The translations under genes and the position numbers were made by a program. The notes under the pieces are model-generated. The model had not been told where the DNA came from. It did no database searches and was given only the letters and a program-made list of their open reading frames with translations. From Acidobacteriota bacterium (GTDB lineage: Bacteria > Acidobacteriota > Vicinamibacteria > Vicinamibacterales > CAVVIG01), in NCBI GenBank assembly GCA_043759095.1, contig JAYVMG010000617.1:1-35152 (forward strand): 35,152 bases of DNA, written 5' to 3'. This document shows positions 16,015 to 35,152 of this stretch, in pieces; within the stretch, counting starts at the first letter, position 1, and each line of letters starts with the position of its first letter.

Positions 16015-16524
16015 TCACGTTCGTACCGCGAAAGTGGCGGAATTGGCAGACGCGCCGGACTTAGGATCCGGTAGCCGAAAGGCTATGGGGGTTCGACTCC
16101 CCCCTTTCGCACCATGGCTCCATCCACCGATCGAGCGTGCAGGCGGCGAGGACGAACAGACACGGCTCGATGGGGACGCTGTCCCGCGGCGCTGCGAAGA
16201 GCAACGTGTGGACCACGTGACCGCAAGAGGAATCGCCCACACGTACGCGACCCGTGGTGACCACGGGATCACGCCAAGCGACAACAGCGCCGCCGCCAGG
16301 AGCAACGCGCGGAGGCTGATGACCGCTCGCGCGGTCGGCGACCGCGGCGGCGTGTCCGGCCCGCGGGGTTCGTCGCCGCCGGGCCACGGCCCCCATAATT
16401 CCCACAACACCTTGAACCATTGGACGAGAAAACCGGCGGGCGCTCCGGACAGCACGAAGCGCACATAATTCAATTGCTGCGGCCAGACGGCCGCGCGGGG
16501 CGACCGCAGACGCGCGGCGGTCAT
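16015..16524 (-). CDS. hypothetical membrane protein fragment; 3' part unreliable and probably part of a decayed GT-C-like gene
   Basis: ATG 16524 sits in an ATGA overlap with the preceding ORF. The first ~100 codons have high GC3 and hydrophobic stretches (ISLRALLLAAALLSLGVIPW). Beyond that the coding signal moves to another frame. Both frames run antisense into tRNA-Leu. Confidence 0.3.
   Translation of the reverse strand: MTAARLRSPRAAVWPQQLNYVRFVLSGAPAGFLVQWFKVLWELWGPWPGGDEPRGPDTPPRSPTARAVISLRALLLAAALLSLGVIPWSPRVAYVWAIPLAVTWSTRCSSQRRGTASPSSRVCSSSPPARSIGGWSHGAKGGSRTPIAFRLPDPKSGASANSATFAVRT
16028..16114 (+). tRNA. tRNA-Leu (anticodon UAG), class II with long variable arm, CCA encoded
   Basis: Acceptor stem GCGAAAG/CTTTCGC is a perfect 7 bp. 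Anticodon stem CCGGA/TCCGG with loop CTTAGGA. Variable arm TAGCCGAAAGGCTATG. T arm GGGGG-TTCGACT-CCCCC. Discriminator A followed by CCA. Confidence 0.93.
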
Positions 16525-18165: not shown

Positions 18166-18777
18166 ATGCGATATCCGCTTGAAGCCCGGAACCAGTTGGT
18201 CCCCATGGTGGTCGAACAGACCAACCGTGGCGAGCGCGCCTACGACATCTTTTCGCGCCTGCTCAAGGACAGCATCATCTTCGTCGGCACGCCGATTGAC
18301 GATCAGATCGCGAACCTCGTGATCGCCCAGATGCTCTTTCTCGAGGCCGAAGACCCCGACAAGGACATTTTGCTCTACATCAACAGCCCTGGTGGGTCGA
18401 TTACGGCTGGGATGGCCATCTACGACACGATGCAGTTCATCAAGCCGGACGTGCAGACCTACTGCATCGGTCAGGCAGCATCGATGGCGGCGGTTCTGCT
18501 GTCGGCGGGCGCGAAGGGGAAGCGGTTTTCACTCCCGAATTCACGGATTGTCATTCATCAGCCGCTGATGTCTGGATTGGGCGGCCAAGCGACCGATATT
18601 GATATTGCGGCTCGCGAGATCCTGCGCATGCGCGAGCGCCTCAACGAGATCCTGGTCCTCCATACCGGCCAGACCGTCAAACGCATCCAGGACGACACGG
18701 AACGCGACTACATCATGACGGCGGACCAGGGTAAGGAATACGGTATTATTGACGATGTCATCCGGAAACGGGCGTAA
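18166..18777 (+). CDS. clpP: ATP-dependent Clp protease proteolytic subunit
   Basis: [59 protein letters not shown]. Start ATG 18166 leaves a short propeptide as in E. coli ClpP. Confidence 0.93.
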
Positions 18778-18778
18778 C

Positions 18779-18813
18779 AGCTCAAAGGGCTTAGGGCGAA
18801 GGGCTTAGGGCTT
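18779..18813 (+). repeat. 5-unit heptanucleotide array filling the clpP-clpX spacer
   Basis: AGCTCAA AGGGCTT AGGGCGA AGGGCTT AGGGCTT, then AAGC and the clpX ATG at 18818. G3N4G3N4G3N4G3 spans 18787-18810. Confidence 0.85.
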
Positions 18814-18817
18814 AAGC

Positions 18818-23141: not shown

Positions 23142-24394
23142 ATCTGTCGACGCTCAAGGACATGAGCGTCGGTGCGCTGACCAAGATCGCGAAGGGACTC
23201 GACGTCCCGGGCGCGACCGGCATGCGCAAGCAGGAGCTGATTTTCGAGATCCTGAAGGCGCGCGCTGAAAAGAGCGGGCTGATTTTCTCCGAAGGCGTAC
23301 TGGAGTGCCTGCCGGACGGCTTCGGGTTCCTGCGGGCCCCCGACTACAACTACCTCCCCGGCCCCGACGACATCTACGTGTCGCCGTCGCAGATTCGCAA
23401 GTTCGATCTTCACACCGGCGACACCGTCTCCGGCCAGATCCGGCCGCCGAAGGATGGCGAGCGGTACTTCGCCCTGATCAAAGTGGAAGCCGTCAACTTC
23501 GAGCCGCCGGAACGGGCGCGCGAGAAGGTGTTCTTCGAGAACCTGACCCCGCTCTATCCGCAGTCGAAGATCCTGCTCGAGACCGACGCCGAGAACCTCT
23601 CCGCCCGCGTGCTCGACATGATGGTGCCGATCGGCAAGGGCCAGCGCGGCCTCATTGTCGCGCCGCCGCGCACCGGCAAGACGATGCTGCTGCAGAACAT
23701 CGCCAACAGCATCACGCACAACCATCCCGAGGTGTACCTGATCGTGTTGCTCATCGACGAGCGGCCGGAAGAAGTCACCGACATGCAGCGCTCGGTGCGC
23801 GGCGAGGTGATCTCGTCGACGTTCGACGAGCCCGCGCAGCGCCACGTGCAGGTCGCTGAGATGGTGATCGAGAAAGCCAAGCGCCTCGTTGAGCACAAGA
23901 AGGACGTCGTGATCCTGCTCGACTCGATCACGCGCCTGGCGCGGGCCTACAACACGATCGTGCCGCCGTCGGGCAAGGTCCTGTCAGGCGGCGTCGACAG
24001 CAACGCGCTGCAGCGACCGAAGCGCTTCTTCGGCGCGGCGCGCAACATCGAGGAGGGCGGCTCGCTGACGATCATCTCGACCGCGCTCGTCGACACCGGC
24101 TCGCGGATGGACGAAGTGATCTTCGAGGAGTTCAAGGGCACGGGCAACCTCGAGATCCATCTCGATCGCAAGCTGACGGATCGCCGCGTGTTCCCGTCGA
24201 TCGACATCCAGAAAAGCGGCACACGCAAAGAAGAACTGCTGATCCCGAAGGAAGACCTCAGCCGCGTGTGGGTGCTGCGGAAAGTGTTGACCCCACTGTC
24301 GCCCGTCGAAGCGATGGAACTGCTGCTGTCGCGGATGGCGAAGACGAAGACGAACCAGGACTTCCTGGCGTCGATGAGCAGCGGCAAGTCGTAA
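23039..24394 (+). CDS. rho: transcription termination factor Rho with a P/A/Q-rich N-terminal extension
   Basis: [37 protein letters not shown] aligns with the E. coli Rho N-terminus. GFGFLR and [15 protein letters not shown] are present. The only canonical start upstream of LSTLKD is GTG 23039. Confidence 0.9.
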
Positions 24395-24469
24395 AAGTCA
24401 AAACGGAAAACCGAAAAGCTAAAACTCGGACTTTTGGCTTTTCAGTCTTAGCTTTTCACTTTCTACCTG
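24393..24469 (+). repeat. mirror-arranged heptanucleotide array downstream of rho (AAAANNN x5, then NNNCTTT-type x5); includes a terminator-like hairpin
   Basis: In-register units AAAAGTC AAAACGG AAAACCG AAAAGCT AAAACTC | GGACTTT TGGCTTT TCAGTCT TAGCTTT TCACTTT CTACCTG. GAAAAGCTAAAA (24413-24424) pairs with TTTTGGCTTTTC (24432-24443), giving 12 bp with one G-U pair and a 7-nt loop. Confidence 0.8.
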
Positions 24470-24541
24470 TCTCCCCCGATTCGATCTCTAATCGCGCCGA
24501 GCGCGCCGATGATGTCGTCGGTGATCATGGGAAGATTGTTT

Positions 24542-32994: not shown

Positions 32995-33795
32995 CTATAC
33001 CCGACTGCCAAGGAAGGCCGCGAGAGCTGCATTGAACAGCTCGGGCTGCTCGAGGTTGCTCAGGTGTCCTGCCTGCGGAATGCGCACGAGTTGGGAACCG
33101 GCAATGCCCTGATGCATCTCTTCGGCAGCAGCAGGCGGCGTCAGCGTGTCCTCGTCGCCGACGACGATCAGCGTCGGGACATGAATCGTGTTCAGGAGCG
33201 GTGTTGAATCGGGTCGCGTCATCAACGCGCGCAAACCGCCGCTGATCGCTTCGGCCGAGCTGTCGAGCATCAACGACCGCACCTGCTCCACCACCGCCGG
33301 CCGGGTCGTCCGGGCCGTCTCGCCCAACACATTCGGGATCATCGCATCGGCGACGGCTGACGGCCCCTTCTCCCGCACGATCTGAAGCATGCGCGTGCGC
33401 CCGGCAATGCCTTCCGGCGTATCCGCCTGCGAGCGCGTGTCGGCGAGGATCAGTCCCTGAACGTAGCGCGCCGCGTAGCGCAACATCGCGAACGCGACGT
33501 AGCCGCCCATCGACAGACCGCCGACGACCGCCAGTTTGATATGCAGGGCATCGAGGAGATCGATCACATCGCCAGCGTAGTCGTCGACAGACGCGGTGGA
33601 CGGATCGCCCGCGCCGCCGTCGTAGCCGCGCAGCTGCGGCGCGATCACATGCCAGCCGGTTTGTGCGAGCGTAAGCTGGCCTTCCCACATGCGCGCGTTC
33701 AGGGGGAACGCGTGCAACAGCACGAGCGTGCCGCGCGGGCGGTCAGTGGAGGGCGGAAGAGCTTCGAGGTAGCGCAGGCGTCCGATGTTGGGCAT
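32995..33795 (-). CDS. alpha/beta-fold hydrolase
   Basis: LVLLHAFPLNARMW, nucleophile elbow GGLSMGGYVAF, C-terminal GHLSNLEQPE. Confidence 0.88.
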   Translation of the reverse strand: MPNIGRLRYLEALPPSTDRPRGTLVLLHAFPLNARMWEGQLTLAQTGWHVIAPQLRGYDGGAGDPSTASVDDYAGDVIDLLDALHIKLAVVGGLSMGGYVAFAMLRYAARYVQGLILADTRSQADTPEGIAGRTRMLQIVREKGPSAVADAMIPNVLGETARTTRPAVVEQVRSLMLDSSAEAISGGLRALMTRPDSTPLLNTIHVPTLIVVGDEDTLTPPAAAEEMHQGIAGSQLVRIPQAGHLSNLEQPELFNAALAAFLGSRV

Positions 33796-33804
33796 CGCAC
33801 TATT

Positions 33805-33923
33805 GTGAACTGAGAACTGAGAACTGAGAACTCAGAACTGAGAAATCGGAGGCACTCTGCACCCTGCACTCTGCACCCTGCACCCTGCACCCTGCACCGT
33901 ACAAGATGCACCCTGCACGGTGT
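33805..33923 (-). repeat. 17-unit in-register heptanucleotide array filling the symporter-hydrolase spacer (plus strand GAGAACT x6, then ACCCTGC-type x10)
   Basis: From 33805 in steps of 7: GTGAACT GAGAACT GAGAACT GAGAACT CAGAACT GAGAAAT CGGAGGC ACTCTGC ACCCTGC ACTCTGC ACCCTGC ACCCTGC ACCCTGC ACCGTAC AAGATGC ACCCTGC ACGGTGT. The sense (minus) strand reads GCAGGGT repeats followed by AGTTCTC repeats. Confidence 0.88.
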
Positions 33924-35152
33924 CAGGCGCGCTTGCGCAACACCGCCGCGAGCGTCATGCTGCCTGTGACGTTGGCCGTCGTGCGGAACATGTCGGGGAT
34001 CGTGTCCACGGCAAGCAGGATGCCGATGCCGTCGATGGGCAGGTTGACGGCCGCGAGCACCGGCACCATCGCGATGATGCTGCCGCCGGGAACGCCGGGG
34101 ACGGCAAATGTGCTGAGGATCACCGTGAACACCATCGAGGCGAGCTGCGCGGGCGACAGCGTGGCCCCGTAGAGGCGCGCGAGAAACAGCACGCCGACCG
34201 GCATCGCCACCGCCGCACCGACGCGGAACACCGACGCGGCCAGCGGCAGGACGAAGCGCGACACGACAGGCGGCAGCTCCGCCCGTTCGGCGCTTTCGAC
34301 CATCGCCGGCATGGCCGCCAGCGACGACCGCGATGCGAACGCCACGGCTTGCGCCGGCGCGCACAACGATATGAAGGCCTTCGGCGACATCCCGCCCGCG
34401 ATGATCCCGATCGGATACAGCAGCACCACGCCGGCCAGGATTGTCAGCAACACGACGAGCACGATATACGCGATGACGGCGCCGGCAGCGGCAAGCCCGA
34501 GCTTCGAGGCCAGGGGCACCGCCAACGCGAACACGCCCACTGGTGCGAACTCGAGGATGCCGGCCACCAGTCGCTGCATCGCATCGGCAACGCCCTGCAC
34601 CACGCGCAACACGGCGTCACGCCGCTCGGCGGCCACACGCGCCAGTGCGATCCCGAACAACACGGAGAACACGATCACCGGCAGCATCGCGCCGTCAGCC
34701 GCCGCCTTCGTCACGTTCTGCGGCACGAGGTCGATGAACCACTGCGCGATCGCCGGCGTGCCTGCCGGCGCCGCCGCGGCGCCCGGCACGGCAGCCGCCG
34801 GTCCGCGCAGCGCCATCGCGGCCTGCTGATCGATCTGAATCCGCGCGAACGCAGGGGTCGCGATTGCGATGGTCATCACCGCGGTCACCGCGAGACAGGC
34901 GACGGCCATCACCGCCGCGCGCGCGCCGACGCGCCCAAGCGCGCCCGATGACGCCAGCGAGCCGACGCTGGCAATCAGCATCGACGCCACCAGCGGCATC
35001 ACGGTCATCCGGATCAGGTTGATGAAGATCGTGCCGACCGGCGCCATCACGGCAAGCAGCGTGGCGACGGCCGGAGATGTGGAGCCGGCCAGCGCGAGGC
35101 CGAGAGAGAAACCGGCGACGAGGCCGATGAGAACCCGGGAGGTCAGTGACAT
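33923..35152 (-). CDS. dicarboxylate/amino acid:cation symporter (DAACS, GltP/DctA-like)
   Basis: 409 aa. The ATG sits exactly at the window edge (35152). RMTVMPLVASMLI, FAPVGVFALAVP, SRSSLAAMPAMV, VPGVPGGSIIAMVPVL..LLAVDTIPDMFRTTANVTGS. Confidence 0.88.
   Translation of the reverse strand: MSLTSRVLIGLVAGFSLGLALAGSTSPAVATLLAVMAPVGTIFINLIRMTVMPLVASMLIASVGSLASSGALGRVGARAAVMAVACLAVTAVMTIAIATPAFARIQIDQQAAMALRGPAAAVPGAAAAPAGTPAIAQWFIDLVPQNVTKAAADGAMLPVIVFSVLFGIALARVAAERRDAVLRVVQGVADAMQRLVAGILEFAPVGVFALAVPLASKLGLAAAGAVIAYIVLVVLLTILAGVVLLYPIGIIAGGMSPKAFISLCAPAQAVAFASRSSLAAMPAMVESAERAELPPVVSRFVLPLAASVFRVGAAVAMPVGVLFLARLYGATLSPAQLASMVFTVILSTFAVPGVPGGSIIAMVPVLAAVNLPIDGIGILLAVDTIPDMFRTTANVTGSMTLAAVLRKRA

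Follow-up and report, generated by a model that had tools for sequence, protein, structure and literature searches.

A two-part heptanucleotide repeat array with natural copy-number alleles between a symporter and a hydrolase gene of an uncultured soil Vicinamibacterales bacterium

The DNA analyzed here, a stretch of 35,152 nucleotides referred to below as the window, is contig C617 of G000, a 4.5-Mb MAG (65% GC, 667 contigs) of an uncultured soil member of the Vicinamibacterales. Near its end, on the minus strand, it encodes an SDF/DAACS symporter (33923-35152; PF00375, E = 1e-80) and an alpha/beta hydrolase (32995-33795), which is followed by genes for DUF547 and SDR proteins; these gene assignments agree with those of the initial annotation. 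On the sense (minus) strand, the DNA from the T of the symporter stop codon TGA (33925) to the G of the hydrolase ATG (33793) comprises 133 nt, or 19 heptamers in a single register. At lag 7 the self-match of this spacer reaches 0.69, whereas other lags give about 0.2. Its units are, in order, TGACACC, GTGCAGG, GTGCATC, TTGTACG, six copies of GTGCAGG/A, GTGCCTC, CGATTTC, five copies of TSAGTTC, ACAATAG and TGCGATG, and they form two motif parts, a GTGCAGG-type part (A) and a TCAGTTC-type part (B).

The stop codon (33923..33925, minus strand, as for all features of the spacer) supplies the first three bases of the unit TGACACC and is part of the base of a predicted stem. It is followed by the 5' arm of part A (CACC GTGCAGG GTGCATC TTGTACG, 33898..33922), the direct arm of part A with its six GTGCAGG/GTGCAGA units (33856..33897), two in-register junction units (GTGCCTC CGATTTC, 33842..33855, with CGAGTTC in alleles L183 and L190) and the five TCAGTTC/TGAGTTC units of part B (33807..33841). 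The hydrolase start codon (33793..33795), which is ATG here and GTG in most relatives, forms the closing three bases of the 19th heptamer. TRF resolves the plus strand into two abutting period-7 arrays, GAACTGA x5.4 at 33807-33844 (93% matches) and GCACCCT x9.6 at 33852-33918 (80% matches). Thus, the continuous period-7 register described in the initial annotation is confirmed as 19 heptamers, counting stop and start bases, as are the switch of motif within it and the perfect adjacent triplicates (3 x ACCCTGC from 33875 and 3 x GAGAACT from 33812). The ranking of merged period-7 arrays likewise places this array as the longest of the window, and it is the third-longest of the genome. No Rfam family matched the spacer, the sole match in the window being a tRNA at 16028-16111. 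The array was found in seven independent assemblies, which rules out an assembly artefact as the source of its presence. The symporter gene of the window differs from that of every other same-species contig at nine positions (34928-35054, about 225 nt or less from the contig end), one of them non-synonymous (V35I), and this cluster reflects either a strain mosaic or an assembly join.

Same-species contigs were obtained by exact-protein look-ups, and spacer lengths were counted from stop to start inclusive; an exact 26-mer across the -10 box and the start gave no matches in the metagenome contigs. The seven same-species assemblies carry four alleles, with 18 units (L183, GCA_031367445.1), 19 units (the window, L187, L188 and L189/L184), 20 units (L190) and 21 units (L186/L182), and their alignment shows length differences of whole 7-nt units only. 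The GTGCAGG arm has 5, 6, 7 or 8 units and the TSAGTTC part 4-6, and the two parts vary independently. The alleles also differ by SNPs between unit variants: unit position 7 is either G or A, TCTCAG alternates with TCTGAG, and the inverted arm has C/T changes. The flanks, including TTCACAATAGTGCGATG, are identical across alleles inside the aligned stretch. Over 4142 downstream bases, L182 shows only 2 differences from the window and nevertheless has two additional units, whereas L183 and L190 are 0.7-0.8% divergent from the window. The alleles were read from short-read assemblies, in which assembler error is possible, with an array (112-126 nt) shorter than both k = 141 and the read length. 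The initial annotation had regarded slipped-strand length variation as plausible for this array and had named invariant length across strains as the contrary outcome; the whole-unit alleles and unit-variant SNPs show that the length does vary. Thus, the array gains and loses whole 7-nt units between natural populations, as replication slippage would produce. The four alleles, at no more than 0.8% divergence, provide a clean natural case of copy number changing unit by unit within an uncultured soil acidobacterium.

In contrast, a short array in these populations holds a constant length. The 5-unit array between clpP and clpX (window 18775-18817) is 40 nt long in all 10 same-species contigs inspected (L191-L200), which come from overlapping samples, and this fixity is as expected if slippage rises with copy number. 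Another array of the window, a mirror heptamer array after rho (24385-24470), was compared in L224-L227: it is equally long in three same-species contigs, between which there is a single C/T SNP, and is wholly missing in L226 (GCA_025350535.1) despite an identical Rho protein. The last codons of rho are AGC-TGA in the array-less L226 and TCG-TAA in the window; the serine and stop codons differ because the first unit of the array supplies them. Thus, an array may be present or missing at one and the same stop codon among close relatives.

The array had been described as linking the symporter to the hydrolase genes in an operon, and this part of the initial annotation does not stand, as the hydrolase has another upstream neighbour in most relatives and a -10 box of its own. 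No single gene precedes the hydrolase across the GTDB relatives and approximately 55 metagenomic orthologues; the neighbour there is either divergent or unrelated and co-directional. The symporter occupies this place only in the window species and in the distant relative L075, where its TAA overlaps the -10 box and no array is present; the symporter/hydrolase junction therefore works without one. The -10-like box of the window, CACAAT (33802..33807), lies 6 nt upstream of the ATG and is found as (T)CACAAT or TACAAT in most aligned relatives. Most of them (alignment A2; L002-L007, L022-L086) share the arrangement ACTCGAC-N17-(T)CACAAT-N5-6-GTG/ATG, whatever gene lies upstream. A conserved -10 box 5-6 nt before the start points to a leaderless promoter of the hydrolase itself. 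Across the genome, -10-like hexamers peak at 3-4 times background where their ends fall at -9 to -7 relative to the start codon, and the position of CACAAT matches this peak. The hydrolase is thus probably leaderless and transcribed from its own promoter, which would explain the missing Shine-Dalgarno sequence, an absence correctly noted before.

This promoter call is based on conservation and not on a consensus score. A consensus scan of 33500-34200 detected neither a sigma-70 promoter nor an intrinsic terminator, and no -35 consensus was found upstream of the candidate leaderless -10 hexamers of the genome. The candidate -35 hexamer of the hydrolase, TTCTCA (33825..33830, 4/6 matches to TTGACA), is built of repeat units and is located 17 nt upstream of the -10 box. 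The array can therefore extend right to the -10 box of a presumed leaderless promoter, overwriting the -35 region.

Direct heptamer repeats, TAACTGA, have been described in marine Beggiatoaceae, Cyanobacteria and Bacteroidetes (MacGregor 2015, PMC4679880), and the present array, too, consists of heptamers just upstream of a start without a Shine-Dalgarno sequence, its plus-strand unit GAACTGA being one base from TAACTGA. It might act, as has been proposed for the Beggiatoaceae repeats, as a binding array for a sequence-specific RNA- or DNA-binding protein, and one that replaces the Shine-Dalgarno sequence in hydrolase initiation. The GAACTGA unit is, however, antisense to the hydrolase and ends 10 nt before its ATG, whereas the Beggiatoaceae repeats run forward and typically end 1 nt before the start; membership of the TAACTGA family was rejected on these grounds. 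Moreover, a single motif dominates there (PMC4679880) against dozens here, with motifs changing from array to array and from species to species, and the conserved -10 box offers a simpler, leaderless explanation. A binding array is therefore very improbable.

An array of variable length that abuts and overlaps a presumed promoter could also be a contingency locus, in which slippage switches or tunes, by phase variation or as a rheostat, either the hydrolase/DUF547/SDR genes or the symporter. SSR contingency loci include the 7-bp repeats in the hmw promoters of Haemophilus influenzae, which the present array resembles in being a heptamer SSR close to a promoter and in having a copy number that varies naturally. 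The candidate -35 hexamer itself is TTCTCA in two alleles and TTCTGA in the other two. In contrast to those loci, however, the unit number leaves the -35/-10 and promoter-to-start distances unchanged. The units lie upstream of and across the -35 hexamer and do not form a variable spacer, and all four alleles have the same -10 box, the same 17 nt between -35 and -10 and the same distance from the -10 box to the ATG. The array is also non-coding, so that no reading frame is touched. The adjoining genes are ordinary metabolic or transport genes and not surface or virulence genes, and the genome has hundreds of arrays (about 300) beside genes of every kind. Rehm et al. likewise concluded against such a role for the repeats of Xanthomonas (PMC4692102). 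Thus, the regulatory or phase role suggested earlier is not supported by the geometry of the alleles; a phase switch is unlikely, and contingency of any form improbable.

Folding of the sense RNA gave -57.8 kcal/mol (z = -2.75), compared with -41.3 kcal/mol (z = -1.1) for the antisense strand. The predicted structure is an imperfect stem-loop of about 30 pairs (33866..33930, minus strand), which extends 5 nt into the symporter ORF (GCGCCUG) and encompasses its stop codon. The 5' arm of the predicted stem consists of the ORF end GCGCCUG, including the UGA, and of CACC-GUGCAGG-GUGCAUCUUGUA; the 3' arm is made of the direct repeats. The irregular units GCATCTTGTAC are a decayed inverted copy of the repeat, from whose reverse complement (GCACCCTGCAC) they differ by three C>T changes. 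Alleles L183 and L190 read GCACCTTGCAC in place of GCATCTTGTAC. The two polymorphic stem positions have C or U opposite G and alternate between G-C and G-U, so that the predicted pairing is kept. This pattern is suggestive of a maintained stem, with just two C/T sites involved and transitions being common anyway. A stem with the stop codon is predicted in all four alleles (-56 to -64 kcal/mol). Parts A and B had also been considered as two arms of one hairpin, an arrangement rejected since they are not complementary and only the 14-nt decayed inverted arm pairs with A.

The predicted stem is not followed by a U-tract or T-run, and a scan for intrinsic terminators found no terminator-like site. 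In enterobacteria, 3' stem-loops of the REP/BIME type stabilize or partition operon mRNAs. The array shares with these elements an extragenic predicted stem-loop right after a stop codon, the lack of a U-tract and hundreds of dispersed copies in the genome. It differs from them in being made of tandem heptamers instead of a conserved palindrome of about 35 nt.

The same sense strand carries five G3 tracts, three of them spaced by N4, as the initial annotation had described. In addition, approximately 100 other arrays of the genome are of the GGGCTNN type, which fits G3N4, and the G-rich strand is preferentially the sense strand. These features would accord with a G-quadruplex in the sense-strand DNA or RNA that regulates transcription or translation, like that proposed for the GGGAATC repeats of Xanthomonas. 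However, the quadruplex itself did not hold up. No motif of four G3 tracts with N1-7 loops occurs in the array, and the only G4-type motif (33862..33892, minus strand) has loops of 4, 4 and 11 nt and passes only the relaxed N1-12 rule. With G4 formation allowed, RNAfold returned the same hairpin (about -57 kcal/mol) as normal folding, so that the hairpin is preferred. Allele L183 has GTGCAGA for several GTGCAGG units, which removes G3 tracts, and in the clpP-clpX spacer 5 of 10 contigs have AGG as the fourth tract instead of GGG, a G>A SNP that breaks a canonical G4 motif. A quadruplex is accordingly a most doubtful explanation of the array.

Tandem arrays also occur in this genome beside genes of the PF05635 family (23S rRNA intervening-sequence proteins), of which it has three. 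One (C536:3284-3592) is enclosed by inverted AGGGCTN/NAGCCCT heptamer arms within a cassette at C536:3162-3811, the second (C63:990-1280) has an AAAGCGA array on one side (region C63:900-1280), and the third (C621:6046-6354) is flanked by CCCACCCGA 9-mer arrays (region C621:6046-6500). The family is present in 48 of 61 relatives. The symporter/hydrolase array might then be a gene-less relative of such hairpin cassettes, with its stem as an RNase III substrate at which the symporter transcript would be severed from downstream RNA; a predicted stem of about 30 pairs would be long enough for this enzyme. However, none of the PF05635 cassettes of the genome has GTGCAGG or TCAGTTC arms, and the symporter/hydrolase array encloses no ORF. 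Its two parts are not complementary to one another, which leaves only the short decayed inverted arm, and this origin thus has a rather small chance of being correct. Samples of 60-80 kb from six relatives contained 0-3 heptamer arrays each, too few to associate heptamer load with PF05635.

The array belongs to a large genomic population. At a TRF score of at least 40, the whole genome contains 318 period-7 arrays, whereas period 6 accounts for 15 arrays and period 8 for 70; a block-shuffled genome gave one period-7 array, with 26 nt as the longest. The period-7 arrays represent 59 canonical units, led by AAGTCTC, AGCCCTG, AGCCCTC and AATCCGC. For genome-wide statistics our own gene calls were used, which are crude (ORF and codon-usage scoring, with uncertain start codons). 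In co-directional spacers, arrays of at least 28 nt start at a median of 3 nt past the upstream stop, and the median distance from their end to the following start is 16.5 nt. In spacers with 60 nt or more of leftover sequence, 32 arrays are no further than 15 nt from the stop, compared with 10 that are this close to the start. Each kb of spacer holds 0.81 arrays between convergent genes, 0.71 between co-directional genes and 0.22 between divergent genes, a 3-4-fold depletion of the last. The share of coding arrays drops with array length, and 3 of the 30 arrays of at least 70 nt were classed as coding.

Strict mirror pairs, X(n)-revcomp(X)(m), account for 30 of the 136 arrays of at least 35 nt and fold with about -0.54 kcal/mol per nt. 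In co-directional spacers, the G-rich, better-folding strand is the sense strand in 49 arrays and the antisense strand in 26, a modest bias (p about 0.01). Among TGCA-type arrays, RTGCAG is on the sense strand in 7 of 9, which is not significant alone. A near twin of the symporter/hydrolase array is located at C162:9606-9750, where (GCGTGCA)x13.7 runs from a stop codon to a GATTTC junction and (GAGAGTT/GAGACTT)x6 continues into the next gene; with 145 nt, it is the longest merged period-7 array of the genome.

Relatives have heptamer arrays as well, but with other motifs. Period-7 arrays of various units are found upstream of 14 of 55 orthologous hydrolases, and the sampled relatives have 0-0.037 arrays per kb compared with 0.07 in the window genome. 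The sequence (GAGACTT)x3 reaches a high frequency in only three genomes (G000, G014 and G046), and its reversed control does so in G006, G009 and G047. The GTDB relatives L002-L007 have no orthologous array at the hydrolase locus. One of the two motifs of the window array is present in L024 (82% amino-acid identity), which has a TTCTSAG array fused to TTCACAATAG as in the window, so that the part B motif adjoins an identical -10 box, with a different upstream gene and no GTGCAGG part. Since L024 has part B without part A, part B is either older than part A or recurring.

Heptanucleotide long simple sequence repeats (LSSRs) are reported from large, GC-rich genomes of non-pathogens (Mrazek, Guo & Shah 2007, as summarized in PMC4679880 and PMC4692102). 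The symporter/hydrolase array is a member of this class, which is defined by head-to-tail units of 5-11 nt in runs exceeding chance length: it has 17-19 tandem units, beyond chance, in a genome where period 7 is over-represented and mainly non-coding, and it changes in copy number by whole units. As far as the class is portrayed in these summaries, the agreement extends to period 7 as the commonest period, the intergenic bias, the GC-rich genome and copy changes by slippage, whereas the 59 canonical units found here, in many unrelated families, differ from the one or few motifs per genome given there. The searchable literature contained no description of heptanucleotide LSSRs in Acidobacteriota or Vicinamibacterales. 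The GGGAATC/GGGGAYT repeats of Xanthomonas and Nostoc are intergenic, closely follow stop codons (by a few nt), have their G-rich strand in the sense orientation and are depleted between divergent genes; their inverted pairs may form hairpins, their length and sequence at the same locus vary in close relatives, and they have no link to gene function (PMC4692102). Similarly, the array studied here begins at a stop codon with its G-rich strand in sense orientation, and the arrays of its genome are depleted in divergent spacers, include hairpin-capable inverted pairs, vary in length and sequence between close relatives and show no tie to gene function. Unlike those repeats, it has no four short-loop G3 tracts, its hairpin is predicted to win over a quadruplex, and it combines two unrelated motifs in one register.

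Thus, the array is a two-part heptanucleotide microsatellite, or long simple sequence repeat, within a genome- and lineage-wide population of such arrays in the Vicinamibacterales. The explanation that we favor, with a probability of roughly two thirds, is slippage-driven turnover of a tolerated spacer, one half of which forms a predicted 3' stem-loop of the symporter mRNA, while the other is a harmless filling upstream of a leaderless -10 box. The alleles demonstrate that the array lengthens and shortens by whole 7-nt units, as slippage would have it, and the array would occupy the sole dispensable DNA between the symporter stop codon and the hydrolase -10 box. The stop-proximal GTGCAGG part, together with the short decayed inverted arm, is predicted to form the long imperfect sense-RNA stem-loop that contains the stop codon. 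This stem-loop would most likely serve as the 3'-end structure of the symporter mRNA, acting in termination, exonuclease protection or RNase III entry; alternatively, it may have no function. The promoter-proximal TCAGTTC part would cover the -35 region, which appears to be low in information in this genome. Because the units are alike, unit gain or loss would leave the promoter geometry unchanged, and the spacer would therefore be hypermutable but functionally buffered, without an on/off switch. Transcription start, 3' end and processing of the transcripts are inferred from the sequence.

A more far-reaching proposal treats the heptamer arrays of the whole lineage as modular RNA-level 3'-end hairpins akin to the PF05635-enclosing arms. 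Such modules would have entered the genome at stop codons, in some cases with replacement of the final codons as in rho, would stay foldable on the sense strand through wobble-preserving changes and would be processed by RNase III; the symporter/hydrolase array would then be a decaying, slippage-inflated example. We consider this proposal speculative and unlikely to be correct. In the favored reading of a tolerated, slippage-prone spacer, the locus adds useful constraints, and the overall picture of heptamer repeats is unchanged. The bacterial preference for 7-nt tandem repeats has been a curiosity since 2007. For annotation, the lesson is that transcript data should be in hand before such an array is called an operon linker, a G4 switch or a phase-variation locus.

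Further repeats were observed near the hydrolase start in relatives. Seven orthologous loci (L047, L049, L050, L054, L060, L063 and L086) have hairpin arrays of heptamers, such as (GAAGTCT)n...(AGACTTC)n, placed between the conserved -10 box with the old start and the conserved coding sequence for LGRLRY (alignment A2, columns about 1000-1240). Insertion of these arrays, at the 5' end of the gene or slightly inside it, implies that the start has been displaced. The same-genus relative L007 has, instead of a heptamer array, a GC-rich inverted repeat, GGCCTGAAGGCCGT...ACGGCCTTCAGGCC, upstream of the hydrolase (1370-1460), which is a different kind of intergenic palindrome.
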